A DNA stretch of 64,000 bases from an uncultured delta proteobacterium (GCA_963771175.1 CAVYSY010000033.1:480001-544000), one strand, 5' to 3'. Counted from the first letter of the stretch, positions 18,381 to 58,388 are shown. Notes: generated from the letters alone by a model not told the origin. Program-made: numbers and translations.

Positions 18381-18702
18381 GCACGCTCTCCGGTTTGCAA
18401 AGTGCGCACGCCCAACATCGGTCGCCAGACATTAAAGTCCTGCCCCCTAGGTGCTGGAGGGGTCCATGGCCCCTCCCACCTACCGGATGAGGCTCGCGCC
18501 CGGCCCGCCCACTCCTGGGCAGGCGAGTAGCAGAGGGCTACCCGCCAGGGCCACACGCCCGTGGCCTCCGGGCCGCACCTCCGCGTCCGCCCGGACGCAC
18601 TCTAGGTGAAGCCGCTGCACCCCTGGGGTGGCCTGGGGATTGCTGCTATGAGGGGGCCTCTGCCGCGCCCTCCCTCGCGCGGCGCCTCTACCCGAGGCCC
18701 TC

Positions 18703-27000: not shown

Positions 27001-29760
27001 GGGCTCACCCCGGACAAGGACTCGTACAAGCCGGGCGAGACGGCACGCCTCATCGTCCAGAGCCCCTTCCAGGAGGGCCGCGCGCTGGTGGTGGTGGAGG
27101 AGCCGGGAGGCAACACCTACACCTGGCACGACGTGTCCGGCGGCAAGGCGGTGCACGAGCTGACCCTCCGTCCCCAGCACGTCCCCAACGTGCCGGTGCA
27201 CGTGGTGCTGATGCGCGGCCGACTCGGCGAGGGAGACAAGGACGACTCCCGCTACCGGCCGCAGACGCTCGGGGCCTCGGTGGACGTGAAGGTGGAGCCG
27301 GTGCGCAACCAGGTGGCGGTGGAAATCAAGCACCCGGAGACGGCGCGCCCTGGGGCCACGGTTCCGGTGGAGCTGACGCTCAAGGACGACCAGGGCAAGC
27401 CCCTGGCCGGCGAGGTGACGCTGTGGCTGGTGGACGAGGCCGTGCTGTCGCTCGCGCCGGAGGGGACGCTCAACCCGCTCGACGAGCTCATCCGGAGCAA
27501 CGCGCGCGGCACCACGCTGCGAGACACGCGCAACAACCTCGTGGGCAAGCTCTTCGAGCAGGAGGAGGAGCCCGGCGGTGACGGAGCCGAGGAGGAGGAG
27601 TCCGAGGGCGGCAGCAAGCGCGTGGTGCGCAAGAACTTCAAGACGGTGCCGTACTACCAGGCCACGCTGCAGGTGCCGGCATCGGGCAAGCTGACGGTGC
27701 AGGTGCCGCTGTCGGACGACCTCACCAACTTCCGCGTGCGAGCGGTAGCCATCTCCGGGCTGCAGCGCTTCGGCTACAAGCAGACGACGCTGCGCGTGCG
27801 GCTGCCGGTGCTGGCGCAGCCACAACTGCCGCGCTTCGTGCGCCAGGGAGACCGCTTCTGGGGCGGCGCGCTGGGCCGCGTGGTGGAAGGCAGTGGCGGC
27901 CCCGGCTCGGTGAAGGTCCAGATTTCCGGCCCGGCGGAGGCGCAGCCGCTGAGTCCCTCGGTGGAGCTGCAGGCCAACCGGGCCATGAGCTTCGTCACCC
28001 CCATCACCGTGAAGAGCGCGGACGTGTCCGAGCCCCAGTCTCTCAAGGTGCGCGTGGACATCGAGCGCAAGGCGGACAAGGCCGGAGACGCCTTCGAGGT
28101 GCAGCTCCCCGTGCTGCCGGACCGCACGGTGGAACACTTCGCGTACTTCGACACGTTGAAGGCCGGGAGCACCCCGCTGAAGCCGCTGCCCGAGCCGGCG
28201 CGCCCGGGCACCGCGTCCCAGGACGTGCTCATCACCTCCATCCCCGGTGTCCTCGAGCTGTACGCGGGCCTGGACTACCTGGCCGACTACCCGCACGGCT
28301 GCCTCGAGCAGAAGCTGTCGCAGCTCTACCCGGACGTGTCCCTGGGCGCGCTGCTCACCCAGCTCAAGCTGAACACGGTCTTCAGCAAGCAGCTCGCCTC
28401 GCACGTCCAGCGGCTCCAGGAGGAGATGGCCCAGTACCAGGACGCGCAGGGGCTGATGGCCTTCTGGCCGGGCGGGCCGGGCGACGTGCAGGTGACGGCG
28501 CAGACGGTGGAGTTCCTCGACGCGGCCCGGCGCGCGGGCCTGAAGGTGGACGAGAAGCTGCTGACGCGCGCGGTGGAAGGTCTCAAGCGCGTGCTGCGCA
28601 GCGACTACCCAGGCCTCGTGCAGGAGTGGCGCTACAGCCAGCAGACGGCGGCGCTGCGAGCCCTCGCCCGAGTGGGCGCGCTGGATGAGCACTACCTCAT
28701 CGACCTCTTCCAGCTCCGCGAGCGCCTGGACATCCAGAGCCTCGCGGACCTCGCCAGCACCATGTCCACCCAGCCTTCGCGCTACAGCTCCAACCTGGAG
28801 GTGCTGCGCAAGGAGTTGTGGGACAGCGTCATCATCAAGCTGAACAAGGGCAAGCCCGTCTTCGAGGGCCTCAAGTGGCGCCGCGCCGCGTGGGGCTACT
28901 ACGGCTTCCTCAGCACGCAGCCCTCCAGCGTGGCGGCCGTCTTCGAGGCGCTGGTGCGGATCGACCCGACCAACGAGCGGCTCGACCAGGTCCGCGACGC
29001 GCTCCTCTCCTACGCGAGCGCGGAGCTGGGCTTCGGCAGCACCTACGAGAACCGCCGCGCCCTGGCCGCCCTGGCCGTGTACCTGGAGAAGGCCAAACCG
29101 GCGGTGCCGGACACCACCGTGTCGCTCTCCTCGGGGAAGAACCTCCGCGTCAACGCGGACACGAAGACGGCCTCCACCGAGGTGGCCGGCGACGCGCCCC
29201 TCTCCGCCACCGTGAAGGGTGGGCCGGTGGGCGTACGCGTGGAGGCCCGCTACGTGCCGGCCACGCCGGGAGACAAGGTGGAGCCGCTCAAGCAGGGCTT
29301 CATCGTCTCGCGCAACGCCACCTGGCTGCACGCGGACGGCTCGGAGCAGACGTACTTCGACGACAAGGCTGGCGAGGTGAAGGCGCTGGCGGTGGGCGAC
29401 ATCCTGGAGCTGCACGCGCGGCTCGTCACCGAGGAGGACCGCAACCACGTGGCGCTGGTGGTGCCCTTCGCCGCGGGCCTGGAGCCCATGAACCCCGAGC
29501 TGGCGAATGCCTCCTCGGACGCGAAGCCGTCGCAGGCGGACTCGCTGACGCCGACCTACGTGCAGCGGCTGGACCACGAGGTCCGCTACTACTTCCTGCG
29601 ACTGCCGCGCGGCACGCACACCTTCCACTTCCGGGTGCGCGCCGCCACCGAGGGCTCCTTCGTCCACCCGGCGCCCTACGCCGAGATGATGTACCGGCAG
29701 TCGGTGCGCGGCCGCGGCGAGGGCCTGCGCATCGTGGTGAAGGGAGAGCATGAGAAGTAG
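24006..29760 (+). CDS. Bacterial alpha-2-macroglobulin, about 1917 aa (one apparent +1 frameshift near 25044)
   Basis: Signal peptide; FTERPIYRPGETVY (MG2); YKPGETA; VRKNF; SDDLTNFRVRAVA; thioester motif YPHGCLEQ at about 28300; AEMMY. Confidence 0.93.
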
Positions 29761-32118
29761 AAGCACACGCTGGCGGAGGGCGGCGGCGGTCGCCCTCGTG
29801 CTGGTGGCGGCGGGAGCGTGGTTCGTCTCCAGCCTTCAGGACGGGCTGCTCGCATATGAGCCCTCGCGCCTCGTGCTGGACCGGCGGGGCGCGTACCTGG
29901 GCGAGGTGCCCGGAACGGGCGAGGAGCTCGGCTACTGGCCGGTGCCCTACGTGCTGCCCGAGCGCATCGTCCAGGCCACGCTCACCACCGAGGACCGGCA
30001 CTTCTACGAGCACCCGGGCGTGTACCTGCCATCGGTGGGGCGCGCGCTGGTGCAGAACGTGCGCAACCTGCGCGTCATCTCCGGAGCGTCCACGCTGGCC
30101 ATGCAGGTAGCGCGGATGCAGACGCCCGGGGAGCGCAACCTGGGGCGCAAGGCGCGCGAGGCGGTGGAGGCCCTGCTGCTGGTGCGCAAGCACGGGCACG
30201 AGAAGGTGCTGCGTCAGTACCTGACCATCGCCCCGTACGGAAACCGGGTGCACGGAGTGGTGCGCGCCGCGCGCCTCTACTTCGACAAACCGGTGGAGGA
30301 CCTGTCGTGGGCGCAGGCGGCCTTCCTCGCGGGCCTGCCGCAGCTGCCCGGGCGGATGAACCCGTACACGGAGGAGGGCCTGCGCCGCGCCCTCAAGCGC
30401 AGCCACCGCATCCTCCGCGCGCTACACGAGCAAGGGCGTCCTCTCGCGCGAGGAGCTGGAGCAGGCCCGGCAGGCGGACCTCGGCCTCGTGCCCCGACCC
30501 CAGCGCATGCCCGAGGCGCTGCACGCGGTGCTGGAGTGGAGCGAGCTGTCCCGCGCGCGTGCCCAGCCCATCTCCGACGGCCACGCTGGACCTGGAGATT
30601 CAATCGAAGGTGGCGCACATCCTCCAGACGAACCTCAACCGGCTGGATGGCACGGGGGCGGGCAACACCGCCGCGCTGGTGGTGGACACGGAGACGGGAG
30701 ACATCCTCGCGTACGTGGGCTCGCGGGACTTCTTCAGCGAGGAGCACCGAGGAGCCATCGACTTCGTGAAGCAGCGGCGCTCGCCGGGCTCCACGCTCAA
30801 GCCCTTCATCTACGGGCTGGCGCTGGAGAAAGGCTCCGTCACCGCCGCCACCGAGCTGGCGGATACGCCGATGGACCTGCGGACGGAGAGCGGGCGGAGC
30901 TACCTGCCGGAGAACGTCAACCACAACTTCCTCGGGCCCATGCTGCTGCGCGAGGCGCTGAGCAACTCGCGCAACATCCCCGCCCTGCGCGTGCTGGAGG
31001 AGGTGGGAGTGGAGTCAACGCTGCGCTTCCTGGAGAAGGCGGGCGTGGGCGGCATCTCGTACGAGCCGGACCGGTACGGGCTCGGGCTGGCGATCGGCAA
31101 CCTGCACGTCACGCTGGAGGAATTGACGAGGCTTTACCTCGTGCTCTCCCATGAGGGCGAGACGCGCCCGCTGCGGCGCTTCGTCGACGAGCCCGTGGCC
31201 CCCTCACGCCGGCTGATGACGCGCGAGGCGGCACAACTGGTGCGCCATATCCTCGCGGACCCGCTGGCCCGGAGGCCGACGTTCGCCGCGGGCAGCGCGT
31301 TGGACTACCCGTACGCGGTGGCGGTGAAGACAGGCACCAGCCAGGGCTACCGCGACGCGTGGGCGGTGGCCTTCAGCGACCGGCTGCTCGTGGCCGTGTG
31401 GGTGGGCAACCACGACTGGCGCCGGATGAACGGCCTGGGCGGGCTCATGGGCGCGGCCGGCGCGGTGCATGAAATCCTGGACGCGGTGATGCCCGAGTGG
31501 CGCCCGTACCGGCCGGTGCTCGACACCTTCCCGCCGCCCGGGGGCGCGCTGGCGGTAGACGTGTGCACGCTGTCGGGCCGGCTGGCCGGCTCGGAGTGCC
31601 CGCACCGCAAGAGCGAGTGGTTCGTCCCGGGCACGGCCCCGACGGAGCCCTGCCCCTTCCACGCGCGCGTGAAGCTGGACCGGCGCAACGGCCTGCGCGC
31701 GGGCCCCACCTGCCCGGAGCGCGAGGTGGTGACGCGGGTGATGCTCGCGCTGCCCGAGGAGTACGCGCAGTGGGCGCGGCGGCAGCACCTGGACATCGCG
31801 CCGCTGCGGGAGAGCCCGCTCTGCCCGACCCACCCGGAGGAGTTGGAGCCGAAGGTGGCCATCCGCGAGCCAAGGGGCACGGTGCGACTGCTGTACGATC
31901 CGGACACGCCAGCCTCGGCCTCGACACTCCGGCTGGCGGCGGACGTGACACCGAGCACGGAGCCCATCGTGTGGATCGTCGACGGCGTGCCGGTGGCCAC
32001 GGTGAGCTGGCCGCACGAGTTCCGCTGGAGCGTCAGGCCCGGCCAGCACGTCATCACCGCGGCCATGGTGCACCGGCCCCAGGTCAGCCAGCCGGTGACG
32101 GTGGTAGTGGAAGATTAA
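29750..32118 (+). CDS. pbpC: Penicillin-binding protein 1C, about 788 aa (two apparent +1 frameshifts near 30434 and 30577)
   Basis: Transglycosylase motifs EDRHFYEHPGV and SGASTLAMQ; transpeptidase motifs STLK, SRN and KTGT; lies downstream of alpha-2-macroglobulin. Confidence 0.92.
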
Positions 32119-32128
32119 TACTACCCAG

Positions 32129-32876
32129 TCACTTGTCCCGGCTCCCCAGTGGGTACGGTTTGTTCGCCCACTTTGCACGCATCCGTGCCGCCCTTTTTCG
32201 CAGCTCGGCGAGATCGAGCGGGTTGGTCGCACGCCCCCAGTGCGCCACTACATGGCAATTCGGGCAGAGCAAAAGAAAGTCCTCCTTTTTGGGAGTCTTC
32301 ATGCCCTGCCCGACGGGCCGCTTGTGATGCACATGAATCAGCGTCTCGTACTCGGGGCCGTAGGCGTCGAAGCTCAGGTCGCATGCCTCGCAGGCATAGG
32401 GCTTCGAACGGCCTTGCAGTACAATTTTCCGGTTCCGGCTGCTCCGTTCAATCGCGTGGTGCGTGACGAGCTTCTTTCGGCCTTCCTCTTCGAGCGCTTC
32501 GTCAGTCGTGAGGACCATTTCATCTGGGGCGTCGGCGGGCGGGAACAGCGTCAGCACTCGGGCCGGACACTTCTTGCAGCGAGTGATCTTCCTCGAACGG
32601 CACGCCGTACCGGCTCACGAGGTGATCGATCAGCGCATTGGGGCTTTGGCTGCAGATCTTTTTGTACGCGCGCTGCGTCGCGCCGCCCGGACCATAGCGC
32701 TTATCGCTCGTTGCAATCCCACATTTCGCGCTGTGCAGCTTGACGTATCTCTCGCTCGTCTCCTGAAAGGTGTTGATGAAGAAGCCACCCCCGTTCTTCG
32801 CAACCCAGTCGAAGAAGGCTGTCGGCGGACTCGCGCTGTCAAACGTGCTGATCAACGCCTTCGGTTTCACAGGCAT
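32129..32876 (-). CDS. HNH endonuclease with an N-terminal Cys/His domain, about 248 aa (one apparent +1 frameshift near 32590)
   Basis: C-terminal EEGRKK..H..ER..CEAC..IHVHH..LCPNCH..H; N-terminal LHSAKC..KKICS..RCKKC once the frames are joined; visibly lower GC. Confidence 0.8.
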
Positions 32877-32960
32877 GCTCAACCTCAATGAGTAAGGAGC
32901 TAAACGGTACGCCGGGGTTATTTTTCACCTTTGCGAGATCGCTGGGCACCCAAATCTTCC

Positions 32961-33431
32961 ATGACCTTCAACGAACTTTCGGAGTTGCTGGAGAGGACCC
33001 CCGCGAAGAGCTTTGGCCAGGGGGTGAGCGACATGGAGCTCAACACCGCCAGTGCTGAACTGGGGGTGGACCTGACCGGTGGTTATCGGCTCTTCTTGAA
33101 GCGCTTTGGGTGGGGAGGCGTTGGGTCCATCGAGCTCTTTGGGCTCGGTGTGGATGTTCCGCCATACTTGAGCCTTACCGCGATGGCCAGGAGTGAGCGG
33201 GAGGAAGCGAGTCCCGCGCTCCCCGCGCATCTCCTTCCTTTGATGAACGACGGGGGAGGCAATCTCTACTGCCTTGATTCCCGGGTATCGGGAGAGCCCC
33301 CTGTGGTGTTCTGGGACCACACAGCCGGAGAGCAGCAGGAGCCCGCACGGGTGGCAGCTGACTTCACGACATGGCTGGCCGAACGGGTCGAGCGAGAGCT
33401 GGCTGGCGAGGCCGATGCTCAGGAATCGTAG
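32961..33431 (+). CDS. SMI1/KNR4 (SUKH) family protein
   Basis: ELGVDLTGGYRLFLKRFG, LMNDGGGNLYCLD, VVFWDH and VAADFTTWL motifs. Confidence 0.88.
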   Translation: MTFNELSELLERTPAKSFGQGVSDMELNTASAELGVDLTGGYRLFLKRFGWGGVGSIELFGLGVDVPPYLSLTAMARSEREEASPALPAHLLPLMNDGGGNLYCLDSRVSGEPPVVFWDHTAGEQQEPARVAADFTTWLAERVERELAGEADAQES

Positions 33432-33538: not shown

Positions 33539-35947
33539 ATGAGACCCGAGAGAGAGCTGCACGACCTGTCTGGCGGGCAGAACGAGCCACTTCCGAAGCT
33601 GCCTGGGCGTGGCCAGTACACGGAGGGTGCCCGCCAGGAGAGGGTCGAGTTCCTCCAGCAGCACACGGGTATGCCTTTGCAGGCCTTGCAGCCGCTGTCG
33701 CTGCGGCCCGAGTCGCTGCTCCACAACGTGGAGAACCTGCTCGGGGCGGTCGAAGTACCCGTGGGAGTGGCCGGGCCCCTGCTGTTCCAGGGCCAGCATG
33801 CCCAGGGCACGCTCTTCCTCCCCGTGGCCACCACCGAGGGGGCCCTGGTCGCCTCCATCTGCCGTGGAGCGACCGCGCTCTCGCGCTCGGGCGGAGTGGT
33901 CACCCGGGTCCTCGCACAGCGGATGGTGCGAGCCCCCTTCTTCGAGTTCGACGGACTGGAGGAGGCCTGGCGCTTCTGCCGACTGCTGGAGGACTGCCTG
34001 CCCGCCCTCCGCGCACAGGTGCGGCGCGTGTCCGGCCACGCTCACCTGCTGGGCGTGGAGACGCAGGTGCTCGGCCGCTGCGTCTACACCCACTTCGTCT
34101 ATGAGACGGCGGACGCGGCCGGGCAGAACATGACGACGAGCTGCACCTGGTTCGCCTGCCAATGGCTGCTCGAGCGCCTGGAGCAGACCGGTCCGCGTCC
34201 GCGAATGTTCGTCGTGGACGGCAATGCCAGCGGCGACAAGAAAGTCGGCTTCCAGTCGTTCCTCGCCGGGCGGGGCACGCGCGTGGTGGCCGAGGTCCTG
34301 CTGACGCGCCAGAGCATCGAGCAGGTGCTGAAGACGACGCCCCAGGCACTCCTCGACGCCTACCAACTCTCGCTGGCCGCGGCCGTGCAGAGCGGGATGA
34401 TGGGCCACAACGTCAACGTGTCCAACGTGGTGGCTGGCGCCTTCGTCGCCACCGGCCAGGACGTCGCCTGCGTGCACGAGTCCAGCGTGGCTCAGCTGAT
34501 GCTGCGCCCCGAGCCGGAGGGCCTCTATGCCTCGATGCTGCTGCCCAGCCTGGTGGTGGGCACGGTGGGCGGTGGCACCCACCTGCCCCGGCAGCGAGCC
34601 CTGCTGGAGATGATGGGGTGTGCGGGCGAGGGGCAGACCCCGCGACTGGCGGAGATCATCGCTGGCTTCGCCCTGGCATTGGATCTCTCCACGCTCAGCG
34701 CGGTGATCAGCGGGCAGTTCGCCGCCGCGCACGAGCGGCTGGGGCGTAACCGCCCCGTGCGCTTCTTCTCCCGCGAGGATCTGACGGCGGACTTGCTGAA
34801 GCCGGCCCTGGAGCGCGCGGTACCGGGCGCCGAGTTGCTGGCGCTCGAGCCGCTGGGAGACCTGTCCCCAGGCGCCGGACTGCTCACCGAGCTCACCTCG
34901 CGCCGGCTCGGCCGCTCCAAGCAGATTGGCCACCAGCCCATGCGACTGCGGTACCGCACGGTCGGGGGCGAGCACGGCAGCCTCGAGCTCATGGTCAAGC
35001 TCAAGCCGCTGGACGAGGAGGTACTGCTGGCGGCTGGCACCGTGGCCGCGCTCGGAGGTGAGCGGCTGGCGCGGGCCTGGAGCCACTTCGGACGCCGCGT
35101 GGGTTTCGTCGGTACCCATTTGCGCGAGCTGGCCCTCGCGGAGCTGCGGGACGAGCGTCTGCGGCGGCACGCGCCGACGGTGTACCTCACCCACCGCGAC
35201 GACGCGCGCGAGGCCTATGTGCTGGTCATGGAGCTGCTGCGGGACGTGGAGCTGCTCGACAGCGCCGATGACCCGAGCGGCTGGGGCCCGGCGCAGCTGG
35301 AGGCGGCCCTGCGGGGCATCGCCCAGGTCCATGCCATCTGGTACGGGCGTGAGGACGAGCTGCTCGCACAGCCGTGGCTCGGCTACTGCTGGACAGCGCG
35401 GGGCATGGTCGAAGCGCGGGAGCTGTGGGAGGCGCTTCTGCGCCTGGCCGCGGACGAGTTGCCCGAGTGGTTCCCCCCCGAGGAGCTCGCCCTGCACGAG
35501 CGGCTGCTGGACACACTGCCCGAGTGGTGGGGGCAACTCGAGGCCCATCCCCGCACGCTCGTGCACAACGACTTCAACCCCCGCAACATCGCCCTGCGTG
35601 CCACTGGGGAGGGGCCGCGCCTGTGTGCCTATGACTGGGAGCTGGCCACCGCCCGCGCGCCCCAGCACGACCTGGCCGAGCTGCTCTCTTTCGTCCTCAC
35701 ACCCCAGGCCACGCACGCGCAGGTGGGGGCTCTGGTGGAGCTCCACCGACAGGCGCTCCAGGAGGCCACCGGCAGGCCCTTGGAGGCGCGGTCGTGGCGA
35801 GCCGGCTACGCGCTGTGCCTGCAGGACTTGCTGCTCCACCGCATGGGCCTGTACCTGCAGAGTCACGTCCACCGCGCCCAGCCCTTCACCGAGCGGGTGC
35901 TGCGTACCCTGCGCCACCTCATCCGCCTCGAGCGAGGCGAGAGCTGA
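33539..35947 (+). CDS. Class I HMG-CoA reductase-like domain fused to an APH/choline-kinase-like phosphotransferase, 802 aa
   Basis: ENLLG..VPVGVAGPL, ATTEGALVAS, DAAGQNM, GNASGDKK, TGQDVA, VGTVGGGT, AHERLGR; then TLVHNDFNPRNI and YDWE in the same frame. Confidence 0.9.
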   Translation: MRPERELHDLSGGQNEPLPKLPGRGQYTEGARQERVEFLQQHTGMPLQALQPLSLRPESLLHNVENLLGAVEVPVGVAGPLLFQGQHAQGTLFLPVATTEGALVASICRGATALSRSGGVVTRVLAQRMVRAPFFEFDGLEEAWRFCRLLEDCLPALRAQVRRVSGHAHLLGVETQVLGRCVYTHFVYETADAAGQNMTTSCTWFACQWLLERLEQTGPRPRMFVVDGNASGDKKVGFQSFLAGRGTRVVAEVLLTRQSIEQVLKTTPQALLDAYQLSLAAAVQSGMMGHNVNVSNVVAGAFVATGQDVACVHESSVAQLMLRPEPEGLYASMLLPSLVVGTVGGGTHLPRQRALLEMMGCAGEGQTPRLAEIIAGFALALDLSTLSAVISGQFAAAHERLGRNRPVRFFSREDLTADLLKPALERAVPGAELLALEPLGDLSPGAGLLTELTSRRLGRSKQIGHQPMRLRYRTVGGEHGSLELMVKLKPLDEEVLLAAGTVAALGGERLARAWSHFGRRVGFVGTHLRELALAELRDERLRRHAPTVYLTHRDDAREAYVLVMELLRDVELLDSADDPSGWGPAQLEAALRGIAQVHAIWYGREDELLAQPWLGYCWTARGMVEARELWEALLRLAADELPEWFPPEELALHERLLDTLPEWWGQLEAHPRTLVHNDFNPRNIALRATGEGPRLCAYDWELATARAPQHDLAELLSFVLTPQATHAQVGALVELHRQALQEATGRPLEARSWRAGYALCLQDLLLHRMGLYLQSHVHRAQPFTERVLRTLRHLIRLERGES

Positions 35948-35948
35948 C

Positions 35949-36872
35949 ATGGCACCGCTCGCCCTCTGTCTGGAGGTGCTGCCGCGGCTGCAGATCGCCT
36001 TCGCCGCCTTCCTCGCACTGCTGGCCTTCGCCCCGCAGAGCCGCCGGCTGTCCGCCGCCACCCGTCGCGGGCTGTGGATCAAACTGGTCGTCTTCTACCT
36101 CATCACCCACCTCTTCCTGCTGCTGCTGACGCTGGGCGGGGTGTGGCTCCACGCCGGCCTGCTCCTGGTGGGGATGGCGGCCTGCCGCGAGCTGGTGGGG
36201 GTGCTCCTGCCCGAGCCTGGGCAGGCCCCCTACCGCGCCATGGCCTGGGCCGGGTCGCTCGCCGCGCTGCTGCTCGCCCCCTCCGAGACGGCCGAGGGGC
36301 CCCTGCTGCTCGCGCTCCTGCTCGCCACGCTCGCCTTGCCCGTGCTCGGGCGCCGGCCCGCGGGCTGCCATGTGGCCGTGGCCTCCACGCTGCTGGTCGT
36401 GATGCTCGCCGGAGCTCTGCCCCTGCGGCTGCTGTGGCTGCGCCAGGAGCAGGGCCTCGCCGCGGCCTTCCTCTTCCTGCTCATCGTCCTCAATGACGGG
36501 TTCGCCGAGGCCTGCGGGCGGTTGTTCGGGCGCCGCCCCTTCTTCCAATCCATCAGCCCCCAGAAGACGCTCGAGGGGGCATTGGGAGGCACCGCCGCGG
36601 CTCTTGCCGGGGCACTGCTCTTCCACCCCCTGCTGCCAATTCCCGCCTGGCAGCGGCTGCTGCTGGGGCTCGTCGCTTCCGTGGCCGGCCACCTGGGAGA
36701 CCTGGTCTTCTCGGCCCTCAAGCGCAGCGTGGGGCGTAAGGACTTCGACTCGCTGCTGCCGTCCCATGGTGGGGTGCTGGACCGATTCGACAGCCTGTGG
36801 GTGGCCGCTCCCGCCTTCCACCATGCCTACGGCGCACTCATCTCGCTCACCCAGGAAGGAAGGACTCCATGA
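35949..36872 (+). CDS. Phosphatidate cytidylyltransferase family (CTP_transf_1) membrane protein
   Basis: NDGFA, ISPQKTLEG, GDLVFSALKR..GRKD..LLPSHGGVLDRFDS. Confidence 0.9.
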   Translation: MAPLALCLEVLPRLQIAFAAFLALLAFAPQSRRLSAATRRGLWIKLVVFYLITHLFLLLLTLGGVWLHAGLLLVGMAACRELVGVLLPEPGQAPYRAMAWAGSLAALLLAPSETAEGPLLLALLLATLALPVLGRRPAGCHVAVASTLLVVMLAGALPLRLLWLRQEQGLAAAFLFLLIVLNDGFAEACGRLFGRRPFFQSISPQKTLEGALGGTAAALAGALLFHPLLPIPAWQRLLLGLVASVAGHLGDLVFSALKRSVGRKDFDSLLPSHGGVLDRFDSLWVAAPAFHHAYGALISLTQEGRTP

Positions 36873-39568
36873 GCCATACCCCGTTCTGCCTCCTGTCCGA
36901 GGCTCGCGCACCCGCGCAGGTGGGAGGCAAGGCTCACTCCCTATGCCGCATGCTCGAGCTGGGACTGCCTGTTCCCGAGGGCTTCGTTGTCACCGATCTG
37001 GCCTTCCAGGCCTTCCTCGAGCAGGAGGACCTCGGTGCGCGACTGGCCAGACTGCGGGAGGGGCTCGTCCCCGGAGGGCTGGAGGCCATCCATCACGCCT
37101 CGCGGCAGATACAGGAACTGGTGCGCCAGACGCCCCTCCCAGAGCCCCTGCGCGCCGAGCTGGCCCGCTGGCGCGAGCGGGAGCTGGCCGCTCAGGAGCT
37201 CATCGTCCGCAGCTCCGCCGTGGGCGAAGACTCGAACGCCGCATCCTTCGCCGGACAGCTCGACTCCATCATCGGCGTGCGCACCCAGCAGGAGCTCGAA
37301 CGCGCGCTGGTGGACTGCTGGGCCTCCTACTGGTCAGCCCGCTCGCTGGCCTACCAGCTCGCGCGGGGGGTGGCGCTCTCCGGTATGGGCGTCATCGTCC
37401 AGCGGCTGGTGCACCCGCGACTGGCCGGAGTGCTCTTCACCCAGGGCCCCCAGCTCGAACAGGGGAAGATGCTGGCCGAGTACTGCCACGGTCACGGAGA
37501 GGCGCTCGTGTCCGGCCGCGTCGACCCCGGCCGCTTCACCCTCTCTCGCGCGGACGGCTCCTGGCATCGGCTCTCGTGGCCCGAGCACGTGGTGCCCCAG
37601 GACGAGGGGCTGCTGTTCTGCCCCGCCGCCCTGGAGTCCCTGCGCGCTGGAGGGCTGAGGCTCGAGGAGCGACTGGGCGGGCCGCAGGACGTGGAGTGGG
37701 TGGTGGATGAGCAGGGGCGGGTCCTCTTCGTCCAGTCGCGACCCATCACCGCCCCGCTGGAGGCTCGGCCGGCGGCCCCCGTGGCCCCCAGGCCTCCCGA
37801 GCCCCCGCGCCGCCCCATTCTCTGGTCCAACGCCAACATCAACGAGAACTTCCCGGACCCGGTCACGCCACTGCTGTATTCGGTGGCGGCGGAGGGCTAC
37901 TACCACTACTTCCGCAACCTGGCGCTGGTGCTGGGAGTGGAGCCCGAGCGGGTACGGCGCATGGAGCACCCGCTGCGCCAGCTCATCGGCGTGCATGGTG
38001 CACGGCTGTACTACAACCTCACGCACATCCACGACTTCCTGCGCAGCGCCCCCTTCGGCGAGCAGCTCAGCGGCTACTTCGATCGGTTCATCGGCGCCTC
38101 CTTCCAGGAAGGAGCCGAGGCGCGCGACGCGGGGGCGCGGTCCGGGGCGGGGCTGACCGAGGCGCTGGAGGTGGCCCGCATCTTCCTGTCCACCACGCAT
38201 GTGTACTCGGAGCTGGAGGAGCATATCCGCCAGTTCGAGCAGCGGGTCGAGGCCTTCAGCGCGCGCACCCACCCGCGCCTGCTGCGGGAGCGAGACTTGA
38301 TAGGGCTGCGCGAGGACCTTCGCGGCTTCCTGGAGATTCGCTTCCACCGCTGGGTGCAGGCCTCACTCGCGGACGCGGCGGCCATGGTGTGCTTCGGGGT
38401 GCTCGAGCAGGTGCTGGAAGCGGCCATGCCGGAGCCGGAGGAGCGCGCGCTGCATGGCACGCTGCTCAAGGGGCTGTCCGGACTGGTGAGCAGCGCCCCC
38501 ATCGAGCGGCTCTGGGAGCTGTCGCGGCAGGTGCGCGGCGACCGGCGGCTGCGCGAGCTCTTCGAGCGTGAGAAGGGCGCGGCGCTGCTGGAGCAGGTGA
38601 GGGCCGGCTCCTTTCCCGAGTTCCACAAGGCGCTCGAGCGCTACCTGGAGGACTGGGGCTTTCGTGGCTCGGGGGAGCTGATGCTCACCGTGCCGAACTT
38701 CCAGGAGGAGCCGGCGGGGCTGCTGGAGCTGCTGCGCGGCTACGTATCGCTGGAGGGGCCCTCGCCGGCCGAGCTGCTCCGGCAGCAGGGAGCGGAGCGG
38801 GAGGCGGCCACGGCCCGGGTGCTGGCGAGGCTGAGGCAGCGCGCGCTGGTGCCCGGGATGCCCCGGGCTCTCCAGGCGAGGCTCTTCTCGCGGCTGCTGG
38901 ATTGGACACAGCGGGCCATCGCCTTTCGCGAGCGGGCCCGGCTCAAGCAAGCCCTGCTCTACACCCGGCTGCGCGCCATTTCCCTGGCCATCGGCCAGCG
39001 ACTGGTGGAGCACGGCCGGGTGGAACGGAGGGAGGATGCGTTCTTCCTGACCTGGCAGGAGTTGGAGTCCCTGCTCGGGGGAAGTGCCATGTTCCCCCAG
39101 GGCGTGGCGGAACTGGTGGCCCTGCGCCGCCGCCAGCACGAGGTGCTCTCCAAGCAGCGCCCGCCGGATCGACTGGTGCTTCCCGAAGGGGCGTCCTGGG
39201 AGCCCGAGCCGTGGGCCTCCGCTGCCGAGCCCGCCATGGCGGGGCGCGGGGTGCTGTCCGGGGTGGGGACATGTGGCGGGCGGGTGAGTGCTCCCGCCGC
39301 GGTGATCCAGGAGCTGGCCGAGGCTCACCGATTGGCCCCCGGCGACATCCTCGTCACCCGGCAGACGGATCCGGGCTGGGCGCCGGTGTTCTTCCTCATC
39401 AAGGGACTGATCATGGAGCGAGGGGGCATGCTCTCACACGGTTCGATCATCGCTCGCGAGCTGGGCATACCGGCGGTGGTCGGAGCGAAGGATGCGACAC
39501 GGCGGATCCGCCACGGGCAGGTGGTGGATCTGGATGGGGACCTGGGCCATGTGCGCCTGGGGGAGTGA
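36869..39568 (+). CDS. PEP-synthase / rifampin-phosphotransferase-like dikinase, 899 aa
   Basis: VGGKA, VRSSAVGED..SFAGQ, GEALVSG, PQDVEW, VQSRPIT; C-terminal phospho-His domain TDPGW..GGMLSHGSIIARELGIPAVVG; ATGA overlap with the previous gene. Confidence 0.92.
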   Translation: MSHTPFCLLSEARAPAQVGGKAHSLCRMLELGLPVPEGFVVTDLAFQAFLEQEDLGARLARLREGLVPGGLEAIHHASRQIQELVRQTPLPEPLRAELARWRERELAAQELIVRSSAVGEDSNAASFAGQLDSIIGVRTQQELERALVDCWASYWSARSLAYQLARGVALSGMGVIVQRLVHPRLAGVLFTQGPQLEQGKMLAEYCHGHGEALVSGRVDPGRFTLSRADGSWHRLSWPEHVVPQDEGLLFCPAALESLRAGGLRLEERLGGPQDVEWVVDEQGRVLFVQSRPITAPLEARPAAPVAPRPPEPPRRPILWSNANINENFPDPVTPLLYSVAAEGYYHYFRNLALVLGVEPERVRRMEHPLRQLIGVHGARLYYNLTHIHDFLRSAPFGEQLSGYFDRFIGASFQEGAEARDAGARSGAGLTEALEVARIFLSTTHVYSELEEHIRQFEQRVEAFSARTHPRLLRERDLIGLREDLRGFLEIRFHRWVQASLADAAAMVCFGVLEQVLEAAMPEPEERALHGTLLKGLSGLVSSAPIERLWELSRQVRGDRRLRELFEREKGAALLEQVRAGSFPEFHKALERYLEDWGFRGSGELMLTVPNFQEEPAGLLELLRGYVSLEGPSPAELLRQQGAEREAATARVLARLRQRALVPGMPRALQARLFSRLLDWTQRAIAFRERARLKQALLYTRLRAISLAIGQRLVEHGRVERREDAFFLTWQELESLLGGSAMFPQGVAELVALRRRQHEVLSKQRPPDRLVLPEGASWEPEPWASAAEPAMAGRGVLSGVGTCGGRVSAPAAVIQELAEAHRLAPGDILVTRQTDPGWAPVFFLIKGLIMERGGMLSHGSIIARELGIPAVVGAKDATRRIRHGQVVDLDGDLGHVRLGE

Positions 39569-40658
39569 GGAGTTACGCGCCTACGTGCGCGAGCGCTTTC
39601 CGCTCGCGCTCTACGTGCCGCTGGCGGTGCTCCTCGCGGTGGCAGCGGAGGTGGGGAGCGGGACGGAGCCGCTGGCCATGCGAGTGCGAGACGTGCTGCT
39701 GGCCTGGGGGCTCGTCTTCCAGTTCCGGTTGTGGGACGACCTGGCGGACCGGGAGAGGGACAGGCAGGAGCGGCCAGAGCGGGTGTTGAGCCGGGCCCGC
39801 TCGCCGCGCCCCTTTCATCGGTTGCTGGCGGTGGCGGCGGGGAGCAACGTGGTGCTGCTCAGTCTGCCCCGGCCCTCGCTCCCGGTATTGGGCGGCTATC
39901 TGGCGCTCCAGGCCGCCTTTCTCGGAGGGTACGCGGTGCTTCGGCACCGGCCGCGGTGGCGGCTGGGCGCCGCACTCGCGGTCCTCGCCAAGTACCCGGC
40001 CTTTGTCGCCCTGCTCGCCATGCCCGTGCACGGTGCTCCCGCCTGGCGCTTGCCACTCGCCATGGCGGTGGTGTTCCTGTGCTTCGGCGTCCACGAGCTG
40101 CTGCACGACGAGCGGCTGCGCTCCTCTGCCCTGGCCCTGCCCGTGCTCGTCGGCCAGGCGCTGGTCCTGCAGGGGCTGCTGGGGGGGCTGGTGTGGGCCG
40201 TGCGCGAGCGGGGCGCGGGTTGGCTGGCGGTGCAGGCGGTGCCGTGCCTGGCCACCGCCACCCTGCTGGCCTGGCTCATCCACCGATGGAGTGGGGGCCG
40301 AGCACCCGGCCCATACGCCTACGCTCTCTTCGCCCTCTGCCTGCTGCAGCTGATATTGAGTTCCGCCTCAATCCCTACTCAGCCGGTGCGCCCCATCAAG
40401 GAAGCGGAGGGCCCCGCGGCGGCGGTGCAGCCTCCATCGACCGCGAAGTCCTGGCCGGTGATGAACGAGGCCTTGTCGCTGAAGAGGAAGACGACGAGCT
40501 CGGCCACCTCCTCGGGCAGCCCCACGCGGTTCATCGGGTGGAGCGAGGCGGCGAAGGCGCGCCCCTGTGGCTCATCGAGCCGCCAGCCATCGGTGGCCAT
40601 CTCCGACTCGACGACACCGGGGCTCACCGCGTTCACCCGGATGCCCTTCTGCGCATAG
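39549..40658 (+). CDS. UbiA-prenyltransferase-like membrane protein (true end uncertain, probably near 40380)
   Basis: YVRERFP, then Asp-rich FRLWDDLADRERDRQERPERVL; about 8 hydrophobic helices; the ORF tail runs antisense into the SDR gene. Confidence 0.65.
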   Translation: MCAWGSEELRAYVRERFPLALYVPLAVLLAVAAEVGSGTEPLAMRVRDVLLAWGLVFQFRLWDDLADRERDRQERPERVLSRARSPRPFHRLLAVAAGSNVVLLSLPRPSLPVLGGYLALQAAFLGGYAVLRHRPRWRLGAALAVLAKYPAFVALLAMPVHGAPAWRLPLAMAVVFLCFGVHELLHDERLRSSALALPVLVGQALVLQGLLGGLVWAVRERGAGWLAVQAVPCLATATLLAWLIHRWSGGRAPGPYAYALFALCLLQLILSSASIPTQPVRPIKEAEGPAAAVQPPSTAKSWPVMNEALSLKRKTTSSATSSGSPTRFIGWSEAAKARPCGSSSRQPSVAISDSTTPGLTAFTRMPFCA

Positions 40659-41173
40659 TCGATGGCGGCACCGCGCGAGAGCGCGACGACGCCGGCCTTG
40701 GAGGCACTGTAGCCAGAGAGCCCAGGCAGGGCGCGCGAGGCGCCCACCGAGGCACAGTTGACGATGGAGCCCCCTCCGTTCGCGAGCATGGCGTTGAGCT
40801 GATGCTTCATGCACCAGAAGGTGCCGCGGAGGTTGGTGTTCATCAGCAGGTCGAACTCGTCATTGGTCATCTCGGCGAGCGGCTTCATGATGCCGGCACC
40901 GGCATTGTTGAAGGCGCCGTCGAGACGGCCATAGGTGGAGACCGCGGTCCGGACGAGCGCCTCGATGTCCCGCTCGACTCGCATGTCGGCGTTGACCCAC
41001 GTCACCTCTCCACCACGCTCCCGGATGTGGGCGACGAGCTCACGGCCCTTGGCTTCGCGTCGCGCGCTCGCGACCACCTTGGCGCCCTCGGCGGCGAGCG
41101 CGATGGCCGTGGCTCGGCCGATGCCCGAGCTCGCGCCCGTCACGAGGATTACCTTGTCAGTCAACATGCCCAT
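40379..41173 (-). CDS. Short-chain dehydrogenase/reductase
   Basis: VTGASSGIG, FNNAG, YSASK, IRVNAVSPG, VDGG. Confidence 0.93.
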   Translation of the reverse strand: MGMLTDKVILVTGASSGIGRATAIALAAEGAKVVASARREAKGRELVAHIRERGGEVTWVNADMRVERDIEALVRTAVSTYGRLDGAFNNAGAGIMKPLAEMTNDEFDLLMNTNLRGTFWCMKHQLNAMLANGGGSIVNCASVGASRALPGLSGYSASKAGVVALSRGAAIDYAQKGIRVNAVSPGVVESEMATDGWRLDEPQGRAFAASLHPMNRVGLPEEVAELVVFLFSDKASFITGQDFAVDGGCTAAAGPSASLMGRTG

Positions 41174-45767: not shown

Positions 45768-47057
45768 ATGAAGCTCACGAAGCTCCGCATCCACAAGTAC
45801 CGGGACGTCGCGCCTGACACCGAACTCGTGTTCAGCCCGTCCCTCAACCTGGTGCTCGGCGAGAACGGCACGGGCAGGACGATGCTGCTGGACCTGCTCG
45901 CCCTCGTCCTCTCCGCGGACTTCTCCGGGCTGCTCCGCGAGGAGTTCTCCCTGGAGTACGGCCTCGCCTTCCCCGGAGTGGACCTCCACATCTCCGTCCG
46001 GAACGAGACGCACACCCCCTCACGGCCGCGACTCTCCCCTCACGACAAGCTGGAGCTCCTGCCACTCCGCACCCCGGAGCCCGTGCCGGAGTTCGACCCT
46101 TTCATGGAACTGGTCCTCCAGCTCCACGAGCCCGCCTCCCGGCTGGTGATGCGCGCCGATGCCTCGGGCATCACCTGGGAGGTGGATGGCCAGTCCGCCT
46201 ACACCCAGTCCATGCGGTGGTCCCTGTTGGATCGCACCGTGTGGGTGGTGCTCTTCATGACGGCCCAGTCCCTCGAAGCCAAGGTCAAGGACCGGCTCAA
46301 GGAGCTGCTCCGCCGCACCTTCCTGCTCGCGCCCTCGCGCTTCGACGAGGTGCTCGGGTCGTTCGAGCGGATTGGCAGGATTGAATACGGCATGGAGATG
46401 CGGGGTGAGGAGGTGTTCCCCCTCGGGCTGATGGGGCTGCCCACGTGGATGCCGGGGCTGCTCCGGGAGCGGGTGGCCCGAGGGCCCCTGGCCGCTGCCA
46501 TCGACATCCTCCCCGAAGAAGTCGAACACGGCTTCCTCGCGAGGTTCATCGCCCTGGCCGGCTTCGCCACGGGGCGGTTCCGGGTGGAGCTGCTGGGCAA
46601 GCGCAGCTTCGAGGGGGGTGGGCGTCTGGAGTTCGGGCGCTTCGGCTTCAGCTTCACCCGACGGGATGGCTCGCTGGTGTCGCACGAGCACCTCAGCCAC
46701 GGGCAGAAGCGACTGCTGTCCTTCCTGTACTACCTGGACGTCAACGAGGACTTCGTCATCGCGGACGAGCTGGCCTCGGGCCTGCACCCGCGCTGGGTCG
46801 AGGCGTGTGTGCGAGAGCTCGACGATCGCCAGGCCTTCGTCACCAGTCAGAACCCTGTCCTGTTCGAGCACCTCCCGCTCGGATCCGCCGAGGACGTCCG
46901 CACCTCCCTCATCCACTGCGAGCTCGGCCCGCGGGAAGGCCGCGAGCAGCGGGTCTGGTGCAACCCCTCGGAAGAGACGGCCGCGAAGCTCTTCCGCGCG
47001 TACCGCGAGGGGAACACGCCGCTCGCGACCCTGCTGCGGACCCACGGCCTGTGGTGA
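45768..47057 (+). CDS. ABC/AAA_21-type ATPase-like protein with a degenerate Walker A
   Basis: MKLTKLRIHKYR, LNLVLGENGTGRT, signature LSHGQKR, Walker B VIADELASGLHP, VTSQN. Confidence 0.8.
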   Translation: MKLTKLRIHKYRDVAPDTELVFSPSLNLVLGENGTGRTMLLDLLALVLSADFSGLLREEFSLEYGLAFPGVDLHISVRNETHTPSRPRLSPHDKLELLPLRTPEPVPEFDPFMELVLQLHEPASRLVMRADASGITWEVDGQSAYTQSMRWSLLDRTVWVVLFMTAQSLEAKVKDRLKELLRRTFLLAPSRFDEVLGSFERIGRIEYGMEMRGEEVFPLGLMGLPTWMPGLLRERVARGPLAAAIDILPEEVEHGFLARFIALAGFATGRFRVELLGKRSFEGGGRLEFGRFGFSFTRRDGSLVSHEHLSHGQKRLLSFLYYLDVNEDFVIADELASGLHPRWVEACVRELDDRQAFVTSQNPVLFEHLPLGSAEDVRTSLIHCELGPREGREQRVWCNPSEETAAKLFRAYREGNTPLATLLRTHGLW

Positions 47058-47070
47058 GCGCCGGCGGCGT

Positions 47071-47949
47071 TCAGCCCTGGGCCTGCCGCTCCCGCTCCAG
47101 CTCGGCCCGGAAGAAGGCCCTGCCCTCGGCGAGCTTCTCCATGTAGGGCCGCACGTCCTCGCGGGACTCGGGAGACAGCAGCGCGAAGGGCGTCACGTGC
47201 TCGTCCGGCACGTAGCGGAACGTGAGGTTGATTCGCCGGGTCCTGAAGTCCGGCAGCTCGGGCGGCAGCAGGTGGCCGCCTCGGGTGTCCACCCGCTGCA
47301 CCCGGTGGAAGGTCTGATCCTTCCAGCGCGCACCACCGAAGAGCTGCAACGCGCCATCGTCGAGCCACTGCTCGAGCACCACCTCGTCGCGCTCACCCGG
47401 GCGAGAGGAGGTGACGAACTGGATGAGCGCGCGCTCGCCAAGGGAGAGCGAGGCCACCGGTCCCGGCTCGAAGTCCTTGTGCTCACCCACCCGCGCGGTG
47501 TCCACCCAGCGCCCGTCCTCCAGGCGGCTGCCGTAGAAGTTCACCAGGCAGGTGTTGAGGTGCCAGCCGGCGGGCATGTCCGGGCCGCGGAACATCCGGC
47601 GCGAGAGCTGCTCCATCTTGTCCACCTGACGCTGGAGCACCGCCGGGAAGGGCTCGGCCTTCACGCAGCGGTTCTTCACGCCCTTCGGCGGCCGGTAGTA
47701 GTCGAGGCACGCGAACTGCCAGTTGCCCAGCCAGTACACCGGGCGCAGCAGTCGCCGCTGGGGCTGTCCTGGGGGCGGCGGGAAGTGCTTGGAATAGCGC
47801 TCCTCCCACAGCGGATGCAGGGTGCCGAGCCAGGAGAGGATCTCCGCGCGGTCCGTCGCCGAGAGGAAGCTCGCGTTGTAATGGTGGCCCGGCGTGCGCT
47901 GGCGTGCCTTGTGAGACAGCGAGCGGCCGAAGCGGGGCGGGTAGGCCAT
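47071..47949 (-). CDS. AlkB-like 2-oxoglutarate/Fe(II) dioxygenase
   Basis: NTCLVNFY, HKD, VASLSLG, FHRV, RRINLTFR. Confidence 0.88.
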   Translation of the reverse strand: MAYPPRFGRSLSHKARQRTPGHHYNASFLSATDRAEILSWLGTLHPLWEERYSKHFPPPPGQPQRRLLRPVYWLGNWQFACLDYYRPPKGVKNRCVKAEPFPAVLQRQVDKMEQLSRRMFRGPDMPAGWHLNTCLVNFYGSRLEDGRWVDTARVGEHKDFEPGPVASLSLGERALIQFVTSSRPGERDEVVLEQWLDDGALQLFGGARWKDQTFHRVQRVDTRGGHLLPPELPDFRTRRINLTFRYVPDEHVTPFALLSPESREDVRPYMEKLAEGRAFFRAELERERQAQG

Positions 47950-48153
47950 GGGTTCTCCTTGCACTACCACAGCGCCCCGTGCATGGGGACTCGCTCCGAC
48001 GCTTCCCCTCCACCCGGGCGCGAGGCGCTTTGTAGGAATTCCGGACGTTTATGCCGCGCTGCCTCCCCTGGGGGGCGGGGGGGCAGGTCAACTCCGGCCG
48101 TTCTGCGCAATAATCGGGAGGTGCTCCGCAGAAAAGAAACAAAAGGAGGTCCT

Positions 48154-54497: not shown

Positions 54498-56926
<2,429 letters not shown>

Positions 56927-56932
56927 TAGGTC

Positions 56933-58342
56933 ATGGCGAATTTCGGGAAGCTGGTTGAGGAAGCCAAGAAGCAGCAGATGAGCCTCGGGACGGACGCGGC
57001 GCGCCAGCTGGCGACGACGACCAAGTCGGCCCCGCAGATGCAGGGAATCTCCTCCCGGTGGCTGCTCAAGCTGCTGCCGTGGGTGCAGGTCACCGGCGGC
57101 GTGTACCGCGTCAACCGCCGCTTGAGCTATGCCGTCGGCGACGGCCGGGTGACCTTCACCAGCACCGGCGCGAAGGTGCAGGTCATTCCGCAGGAGCTCA
57201 GCGAGCTGCCGCTGCTGCGCGGCTTCGACGACGCCGAGGTGCTGGCCGCCCTGGCCAACCGCTTCGAGCAGAAGGAGTTCAAGGCCGGTGACGTGCATCA
57301 CCGAGGCCGGCAAGGAGGCCGATTCGATCTGCCTCATCGCTCACGGCAAGGTGAACAAGATCGGCACCGGCAAGTACGGCGAGCAGACCGTGCTCGAGGT
57401 GCTGGCCGATGGCGACCACTACAGCTACGAGGTGCTGCTGGAGTCGCAGGACTACTGGCAGTTCACGGTCAAGGCCGTCACCTCGTGCACGGTGCTGATC
57501 CTCCAGCAGTCCGCGTTCGAGGCGGTGGTCGCCCAGGCCCCGTCGCTGCAGAAGCACATCGAGGACTTCAAGGCGCTCGCCAAGAAGAAGCAGGACAAGT
57601 CGGGCCAGGCCGACATCGAGCTGGCCGCGGGACATCATGGACGAGCCCGTGCTGCCGGGCACCTTCGTGGATTACGAGACCTCGCCCCGCGAGTACGAGC
57701 TGAGCGTGGCCCAGACCGTGCTCCAGATCCACACGCCGCGTCGCCGACCTGTTCAACGACCCGATGAACCAGACCCAGCAGCAGCTGCGTCTGACCGTCG
57801 AGGCGCTGAAGGAGCGCAAGGAGCACGAGCTGATCAACAACCGCGAGTTCGGCCTGCTGCACAACGCCGATCTCAAGCAGCGCATCCACACCCGCAGCGG
57901 GCCGCCGACGCCCGACGACATGGACGAGCTGCTGGCCACCGTGTGGAAGGATCCGTCCTTCTTCCTGGCCCACCCGCGCGCCATCGCCGCGTTCGGTCAG
58001 GAGTGCAACCGCCGCGGCATCTACCCCACCAGCGTCGACGTGAACGGCAACGCGGTCCCCGCCTGGCGCGGCGTCCCCATCTTCCCCTGCAACAAGATCC
58101 CCATCAGCGACACCCGCACCAGCTCCATCCTCCTGATGCGCGCGGGGGAGGAGAACCAGGGCGTCATCGGCCTGCACCAGGCGGGCATCCCCGACGAGAT
58201 CGAGCCCAGCCTGAACGTGCGGTTCATGGGCATCAACGAGAAGGCCGTCATCTCCTACCTCGTCAGCACCTACTTCTCCGCGGCGGTCCTCGTCCCCGAC
58301 GCGCTCGGCATCCTCGAGAGCGTCGAGATTGGCCGCGTCTAG
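56933..58342 (+). CDS. Family 2B encapsulin shell protein 1 with cNMP-fold insertion, about 468 aa (three apparent +1 frameshifts near 57296, 57636, 57736)
   Basis: [97 protein letters not shown]. Confidence 0.92.
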
Positions 58343-58388
58343 GAAGCAGGCGGTCTGAGGCAGTTCGGACACAGCTGAGGCACACCTC

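Follow-up and report, generated by a model that had tools for sequence, protein, structure and literature searches.

Here, we describe four genes, g1 to g4, that follow one another on the plus strand of a 64,000-nt stretch of DNA from an uncultured delta proteobacterium (GCA_963771175.1, CAVYSY010000033.1:480001-544000). We refer to this whole 64-kb stretch as the window and count positions from its first letter. [quoted passage not shown] The window has a G+C content of ~70%, and long spurious open reading frames (ORFs) are common in it. The four genes stand out among these ORFs because all of them share one coding signature, with GC fractions of ~0.77, 0.48, and 0.90 at codon positions 1, 2, and 3.

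Reading the junctions shows how tightly the genes are packed. The ATG of g1 lies at 33539 and its TGA at 35945-35947; g2 opens with an ATG at 35949, after a 1-nt gap, and the ATGA at 36869-36872 is both the stop of g2 and the start of g3. The TGA of g3 (39566-39568) falls inside g4, giving a 20-nt overlap if g4 starts at the in-frame ATG at 39549, or a 35-nt overlap if it starts at the ATG at 39534, the start used by its closest homologues. Four co-directional genes with these junctions had been reported in an initial annotation of the window, whose 20-nt overlap holds for the later of the two starts. The annotation had also ended the operon at 40380, where the g4 frame has no stop and continues open to 40658; positions 40379-40381 are the stop codon of a convergent short-chain dehydrogenase/reductase (SDR) gene. 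The four genes form a real operon, and only the end given for g4 was wrong.

Table 1. Coordinates of the g1-g4 operon and of other features in the 64-kb window.
Feature	Position	Strand	Product length	Description
g1	33539..35947	+	802 aa	Class-I HMG-CoA reductase homologue fused to an APH/choline-kinase-fold kinase
g2	35949..36872	+	307 aa	Membrane CTP transferase, CdsA family (CTP_transf_1)
g3	36869..39568	+	899 aa	ATP-grasp plus C-terminal swivelling phospho-His dikinase, rifampin-phosphotransferase/PigC architecture
g4	39534 or 39549 to ~40360 (conserved body); ORF open to 40658	+		UbiA-fold membrane transferase (structure model)
SDR gene	40379..41170	-		Convergent with g4
Low-GC patch	32200..33431			Directly upstream of the operon
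SUKH/SMI1-KNR4 gene	32931..33431			Immunity-type gene inside the low-GC patch
Long ORF	18652..24009		1785 aa	Strong coding signature
Alpha-2-macroglobulin and PBP1C-type genes	25087..32118		1557 aa (alpha-2-macroglobulin)	Alpha-2-macroglobulin gene, then PBP1C-type gene
AAA ATPase	45768..48048			Weak similarity to defence ATPases
Terpene synthase and encapsulin genes	54596..59800		777 aa (terpene synthase)	Terpene synthase, then two family-2 encapsulin shell genes (SrpI-like)

A scan for promoters and terminators returned one promoter-like and three terminator-like sites, which is near the level found in shuffled sequence. Composition gives no sign of foreign origin: the GC content of g1 to g4 is that of the window. 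The low-GC patch directly upstream, which holds the SUKH/SMI1-KNR4 gene, has a GC fraction of 0.57-0.64 against ~0.71.

The N-terminal domain of g1 (approximately residues 32-403) matches the Pfam family PF00368 at 4.2e-102, a match that spans positions 2-368 of the 368 in the profile. Of the proteins with solved structures, an archaeal HMGR (6hr7, 2.9e-72) is its best relative. The score against the NCBIfam model TIGR00533 is 277.0 bits, below the equivalog cut-off of 441.8. All 20 fusion proteins compared share E100, K234/K235, D308, and H398; of these residues, E100, K234, D308, and H398 lie in the motifs T-T-E-G, D-K-K, G-Q-D, and A-H-E, respectively. They are the catalytic Glu/Lys/Asp/His tetrad of class-I HMGR (E559, K691, D767, and H866 in the human enzyme).

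The remaining ~390 residues of g1 (411-802, window positions 34769-35944) have only weak Pfam matches to EcKL and APH (EcKL, 7.4e-6), and relatives of this domain match PF01633 weakly. The structure model of the domain (mean predicted local distance difference test, pLDDT, 93.9) retrieves with Foldseek the APH-like protein 3dxp, corramycin phosphotransferase, PsiK, 25-hydroxysteroid kinase, choline kinase LicA, and FN3K. These matches are small-molecule O-kinases. The catalytic residues K77/K79, H266, D268, N273, and D289 of the kinase are invariant in 25 of 25 sequences. We assign the C-terminal domain to the small-molecule kinases of the APH/choline-kinase fold. Among the 120 best homologues of the whole fusion protein, 80 are at least 870 aa long and carry an N-terminal extension of ~100 aa; in one of four long fusion proteins tested, Pfam reported a PilZ-like match in this extension, below the cut-off. 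Some relatives also fuse DUF3419 (BtaA-like) to the reductase-kinase.

Fusion reductases are phylogenetically distinct from stand-alone ones. We built a quick, midpoint-rooted IQ-TREE phylogeny from 80 reductase domains, an 81st having been excluded for its short length. In this tree, the fusion reductases form a clade of 45 sequences, apart from a clade of 25 stand-alone, presumably canonical, reductases; the Shimodaira-Hasegawa-like approximate likelihood-ratio support is 92 on both sides. A third clade comprises unfused reductases of the cluster type.

The substrate pocket also differs between these clades. The carboxylate of HMG is held in a salt bridge by Lys735 of the human enzyme and Lys441 of the Arabidopsis enzyme (PMC9500038). 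In the alignment of g1, the Lys735 column holds Gln276 or a gap. After six rows had been relabelled by their position in the tree, we counted Lys or Arg at the Lys735 columns in 4 of 45 fusion-clade sequences, in 20 of 25 canonical sequences, and in 3 of 10 unfused cluster-type sequences. The equivalent of His752 is Asn in 43 of the 45 fusion-clade sequences and His in 24 of the 25 canonical ones. This suggests that the substrate of the fusion reductase lacks the HMG carboxylate. Because the carboxylate-binding lysine is missing, a substrate less acidic than HMG-CoA (a 3-hydroxyacyl-type or other CoA ester) is likelier, and the acyl-CoA ligase encoded in the cluster of many relatives fits a substrate that is made on the spot. 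HMG-CoA itself may nevertheless be the substrate of g1.

g2 matches PF01148 at 1e-44. It scores 76.3 bits against the CdsA equivalog NF008635 (cut-off 385) and aligns with Thermotoga CdsA (4q2g) at 6.2e-14, including the C-terminal signature K-R...K-D...H-G-G...D-R-x-D. By this alignment, g2 is a CdsA-family CTP transferase in which the catalytic signature is retained. Only four homologues combine more than 45% identity with coverage of at least 87% of g2 (identities of 87%, 70%, 69%, and 48%), and a fifth, with 31% identity, also has 87% coverage; most others align only over the C-terminal 30-60% of the protein. Two of the four close homologues lie on contigs of 51,777 and 63,490 nt, sizes that match contigs carrying close homologues of g1 and g4. 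We infer from these matching contigs that at least two related organisms retain the operon.

g3 contains an ATP-grasp domain (PF01326, 2.7e-57) and a phospho-His domain (PF00391, 3.7e-24) and has no other Pfam domain; the phosphoenolpyruvate (PEP)/pyruvate-binding barrel is absent. It falls below every NCBIfam cut-off: PRK06241.2-2 (477 bits against 883), RPH (328 against 999), PigC (286 against 1300), RedH (321 against 1350), and PpsA (247 against 598). Among solved structures, 5hv2, 5fbs, and 5hv1 are its best relatives; the 5hv1/5fbs group is the rifampin phosphotransferase of Listeria. All 25 cluster homologues compared have H857, which lies in a G-x-x-L-S-H motif.

Recognizable family motifs had been claimed for each of the four genes. 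Pfam bears this out for g1 to g3; g4 has no Pfam match at E ≤ 0.01 (PF01040 included) and no NCBIfam match, and its UbiA nature emerged only from a structure model. The AlphaFold model of g4 has a pLDDT of 92.8, and its top seven Foldseek matches in the PDB all belong to the UbiA superfamily, led by DGGGP synthase (6m31/7bpu) and followed by ApUbiA and AfUbiA (template modelling, TM, scores of 0.54-0.66; probabilities of 0.97-1.00). Identity to solved UbiA proteins is only 12-18%. Five of 31 g4 homologues carry a precomputed PF01040 assignment, the related neighbour family C22 matches PF01040 at 1.1e-4 (below the cut-off), and hidden Markov models (HMMs) built from UbiA genes of the clusters match g4 at 3e-10 and 7e-11. 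In the first acidic motif, D-D-x-x-D-x-x-x-D, no sequence departs from D68, D69, or D76, and at least 90% keep D72; the second reads E188-x-x-x-D192, that is, E-x-x-x-D instead of D-x-x-x-D. On the strength of the model, we regard g4 as a UbiA-fold membrane transferase. All four family assignments made previously, including "UbiA-like" for g4, hold.

Homologues of g4 are 275-282 aa long (58-85% identity), and their ends map to ~40355-40365 in the window. The ~99 codons beyond (40359-40658) are not conserved and run antisense to the 3' end of the SDR gene, and their GC fractions at the three codon positions (0.51/0.70/0.88) are those of an antisense, noncoding frame. Because the homologues end there and the tail has antisense composition, the conserved body of g4 ends near 40360. 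Relative to its homologues, g4 has thus lost its stop codon, or a small indel has shifted it.

Relatives of the fusion protein are widespread. We detected 991 matches to it; the best 120 all contain PF00368, represent many phyla, and are mostly 50-55% identical to it. With a profile built from the kinase domain, we retrieved 517 representatives at E ≤ 1e-30 (clusters at 50% identity), and among the best 150 of these, 95 are at least 700 aa long, that is, fused. In Protein Atlas, we found only clusters automatically named "phosphotransferase."

We scanned 80 loci, one genome per species, by running HMMs of neighbour families over six-frame translations. The fusion is present in 39 of these loci, and our counting set is the 28 of them that are flanked by 4 kb or more on each side. 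The dikinase occurs in 18 of the 28, the UbiA gene in 15, both in 14, and both together with a CTP transferase in 10, so the genes are conserved together elsewhere. Other recurrent partners are an acyl-CoA ligase or GH3 gene (16/28), a cytidine diphosphate (CDP)-alcohol phosphatidyltransferase (12/28), a CarS- or CdsA-type CTP transferase (10/28), a GNAT-like protein (10/28), an MMPL transporter (8/28), and thymidylate-kinase-like genes (8/28). LolA-like genes are also among the neighbours of the fusion in many relatives. Across all 27 loci that have both a dikinase and a UbiA gene, the two are on the same strand, and in 14 they are directly adjacent; the g3-type dikinase is genetically tied to the UbiA gene.

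The full set is found in Photorhabdus (three loci), Kosakonia, Agitococcus, Moraxellaceae, Ectothiorhodospiraceae, Paenibacillus, Marinicrinis, and Aestuariivivens. The last of these, a Flavobacteriaceae locus (L046) from a distant phylum, has the exact gene order of the window: fusion, CTP transferase (CarS-like), dikinase, and a g4-family gene. It is flanked by genes for a PlsC-type acyltransferase, a methyltransferase, and a fatty-acid desaturase. Among the neighbour families, C5 is similar to the serine and archaetidylserine synthases, and C7 to CDP-archaeol synthase. In four loci (L005, L016, L027, and L030), the CDP-alcohol transferase ORF is ~400 aa long, about double its typical ~207 aa, and a CarS match of its own is lacking, which suggests that these ORFs may be CarS fusions. 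Another neighbour family, C18, was compared with the profile of g2; only a D-x-x-A...K-x-x-E-G motif aligned, at 8% probability, so that a kinship with CTP_transf_1 is suggestive at most. A second set of loci combines an unfused reductase with UbiA, dikinase, DUF3419, and uncharacterised families.

We find that the operon resembles three known pathways and belongs to none of them. As in the archaeal phospholipid pathway (DGGGP synthase, CarS, and archaetidylserine and related synthases), there is a predicted UbiA-fold transferase, best matched to DGGGP synthase, and a CTP-dependent activation of a lipid phosphate; relatives also place CarS-like genes beside those for CDP-alcohol phosphatidyltransferases. 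However, glycerol-1-phosphate dehydrogenase and GGGP synthase were not seen among the recurrent neighbour families, the CTP enzyme of the window is of the CdsA type rather than the CarS type, and the HMGR-kinase fusion and the dikinase have no archaeal counterpart. With the Kennedy pathway (choline/ethanolamine kinase, cytidylyltransferase, and CDP-alcohol phosphotransferase), the cluster shares a kinase of the ChoK/APH fold, a CDP-activated intermediate, and, in relatives, a CDP-alcohol transferase. Here, though, the CTP enzyme is an integral-membrane protein of the CdsA/CarS type rather than a soluble one, and the alcohol would be made in situ by the reductase. The mevalonate pathway has the same reductase fold and catalytic tetrad, and in both cases the new alcohol would be phosphorylated at once. 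It differs in that the operon kinase is of the APH/choline-kinase fold rather than a GHMP kinase, in that its other genes are missing, and in that the operon reductase belongs to a separate clade without the equivalents of Lys735 and His752. Finally, g3 shares with rifampin phosphotransferase and the PigC/RedH ligases the sequence of an ATP-grasp domain, a substrate domain, and a C-terminal swivelling domain with an invariant catalytic His, while scoring far below their curated cut-offs. To our knowledge, a conserved pairing with a UbiA gene has not been described for either group.

The enzyme classes, the operon structure, the intact catalytic residues, and the conserved company of lipid enzymes and lipid exporters are established by these data. 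We propose, with a probability of roughly 0.45, that g1 to g4, as one translationally coupled operon, represent a widespread group of uncharacterised bacterial clusters for lipid biosynthesis, centred on a distinct clade of kinase-fused HMGR homologues, and that they act in the following route, whose substrates, step order, and product we infer. The reductase domain of g1 would use NAD(P)H to convert an acyl-CoA thioester into a primary alcohol, which the fused kinase would phosphorylate. At the membrane, g4 would then join the phospho-alcohol and a diphosphate-activated chain (prenyl or other), in the way that DGGGP synthase uses glycerol phosphate; g3 would supply or regenerate the diphosphate donor, or add a second phosphate. 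With CTP, g2 would convert the resulting lipid phosphate into a CDP-lipid, to which a CDP-alcohol phosphatidyltransferase, an enzyme that relatives encode within the cluster and that this genome must encode elsewhere, would add a head group. In relatives, MMPL and LolA-like proteins would carry the product to the envelope. The end product would be an unusual phospholipid. The lipid reading is strengthened because relatives add genes for CDP-alcohol phosphatidyltransferase, CarS-like, MMPL, and LolA-like proteins. Our results thus support the lipid or isoprenoid route suggested in the initial annotation. They point to CDP-activated synthesis of a membrane lipid, with a substantial chance that the lipid class is entirely new. 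One specific version, which we consider somewhat unlikely, is a class of glycerol-free phospholipids in many bacteria. Their backbone would be the phospho-alcohol made by the fusion (mevalonate phosphate or a diol phosphate), which a DGGGP-synthase-like enzyme would prenylate and which would then be CDP-activated, equipped with a head group, and exported to the envelope.

Several observations weigh against the proposed route. The window has no CDP-alcohol phosphatidyltransferase, CarS, acyl-CoA ligase, GNAT, MMPL, or LolA-like gene. In the counting set, the dikinase is absent from 10 of 28 loci and the UbiA gene from 13, and two loci (L001 and L006) have no partner gene at all. Actinobacterial loci (L009, L015, L021, L022, and L039) pair the fusion with GH3, DUF6182, an uncharacterised 380-aa protein, and a thymidylate-kinase-like gene, and have no membrane transferase. 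Bacteroidota loci pair it with two thymidylate-kinase-like genes, a nucleotidyltransferase of the NTP_transf_5 family, and an epimerase; L024, L029, L033, L037, and L044 have this set, again with no membrane transferase and with a dikinase in three of the five (L024, L033, and L037). The role proposed for the dikinase has no precedent. The Foldseek E-values of g4 are weak (best 1.3e-3, none ≤ 0.001), though the TM-scores and the run of UbiA matches agree. The reductase tree is a quick version with a midpoint root only, and the pocket argument depends on alignment in a variable region, where 5 of the 25 canonical sequences also lack Lys or Arg. Given the actinobacterial and Bacteroidota partner sets, the product of the fusion can feed routes without a membrane transferase. 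The fusion is thus a module that serves more than one route.

The main rival explanation uses the same enzymes but makes the product of g1 the donor. The reductase would form an alcohol (allylic if the acyl-CoA is unsaturated), the fused kinase its monophosphate, and g3 the diphosphate, which g4 would transfer to an acceptor, with g2 acting on the acceptor or the product. Such a salvage-like logic is known from plants, where phytol is used by VTE5 (a kinase of the CTP_transf_1 family), then VTE6, and then UbiA-type transferases. It would account for the retention of both acidic metal/diphosphate motifs in g4, for the strict pairing of dikinase and UbiA genes, and for the thymidylate-kinase-like genes that accompany the fusion in loci without a dikinase and could turn a phosphate into a diphosphate; the acyl-CoA ligase or GH3 of many loci could feed the reductase. 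We nonetheless consider it unlikely. On its own, it does not account for the CDP-alcohol phosphatidyltransferase that accompanies CarS in 12 of 28 loci. The cytidylyltransferase signature of g2 is complete, unlike that of a kinase-only member of its family, and the Bacteroidota loci hold a dikinase and two thymidylate-kinase-like genes together. Furthermore, no phospho-His dikinase is known to make alkyl diphosphates, although no search was aimed at this point.

The other readings are disfavoured. A noncanonical route to isoprenoid precursors, in which g1 would convert HMG-CoA to mevalonate 5-phosphate, g3 would phosphorylate it further, and the products would feed prenyl chains for g4, accords with the invariant class-I tetrad, with closest solved relatives that are true HMGRs, and with a kinase placed directly after the reductase, which mimics the order of HMGR and mevalonate kinase. 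We judge it improbable. HMG-CoA synthase, GHMP kinase, diphosphomevalonate decarboxylase, and isopentenyl diphosphate isomerase were not found in the 40 window ORFs scanned with Pfam, which agrees with the earlier view that this is not a standard mevalonate operon, and no mevalonate-pathway partners were seen among the recurrent neighbour families of the 80 loci. The carboxylate-binding lysine is absent, and the fusion clade lies apart from canonical HMGR. The cluster is also present in Photorhabdus and Kosakonia, enterobacteria that use the methylerythritol phosphate pathway. It is very improbable that a housekeeping HMGR, CdsA, and PEP synthase and a hypothetical membrane protein lie together by chance. 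Relatives are indeed annotated as "HMG-CoA reductase (NADPH)" and "phosphatidate cytidylyltransferase," but no NCBIfam equivalog is reached by g1, g2, or g3, all genes being far below the cut-offs, and the reductase is in a clade of its own. The junctions overlap, the functional set recurs across phyla, g3 has no PEP/pyruvate-binding domain, and full-length relatives of g2 are few and track the cluster. Equally improbable is a role in antibiotic resistance, xenobiotic modification, or anti-phage defence built around the RPH-like g3 and the APH-like kinase. Such a role would fit the rifampin phosphotransferase group to which the best solved relatives of g3 belong, and the aminoglycoside and corramycin phosphotransferases among the structural neighbours of the kinase; the RPH equivalog score does not fit it, PADLOC gave no matches for any of the four proteins, and the partners conserved with the operon are enzymes and exporters of lipids. 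A polyketide synthase/nonribosomal peptide synthetase or terpene cluster context was rejected, as the downstream thioesterase and SDR genes are not conserved with the operon and the SDR gene is convergent.

We found no description of this cluster in the full-text literature, a search that did not extend to subscription journals or bioRxiv supplements. In the accessible part of the Lipocone paper, HMGR is mentioned only beside a GHMP kinase, which is a different neighbourhood (PMC12419801). HMG-CoA reductase is among the best-studied enzymes, and here a large kinase-fused bacterial clade, with hundreds of clusters at 50% identity, has no assigned role. UbiA-fold, CarS/CdsA, CDP-alcohol-transferase, MMPL, and LolA-like genes are among its steady companions, which suggests that Pseudomonadota, Bacteroidota, Bacillota, Bdellovibrionota, and other phyla contain a membrane lipid not yet described. 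If the product were identified, bacterial lipid biochemistry would gain a branch, with a bearing on the lipid divide between Archaea and Bacteria. Its identification would also give functions to a subfamily of phospho-His dikinases and to uncharacterised families (the DUF3419 partners, C13, C18, C20, and C36), and offer new enzymes for phosphorylated alcohols. If the glycerol-free version is true, archaeal-style lipid logic operates in bacteria and the HMGR fold has a second physiological role.

Other parts of the window hold further features (Table 1). The terpene synthase contains two PF19086 domains, and the second of the encapsulin shell genes that follow it has an N-terminal cyclic nucleotide monophosphate-binding domain. 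The region looks like an encapsulin with a terpene-cyclase cargo. The first shell gene seems to be split over two frames, with profile positions 24-55 in 57637-58404 and 54-254 in 57704-58342, which may reflect a frameshift or a sequencing error. The 1785-aa ORF has a GC fraction of 0.94 at third codon positions and no Pfam match at 1e-5. The PBP1C-type gene occupies overlapping, different frames, with the transglycosylase in 29750-30769 and the transpeptidase and BiPBP_C domains in 30307-32118; again, this may be a frameshift. The AAA ATPase resembles the defence proteins MADS3 (1e-7) and PtuA (3e-5), both far below the cut-offs, and is adjoined on the opposite strand by a 2-oxoglutarate-Fe(II) oxygenase gene.

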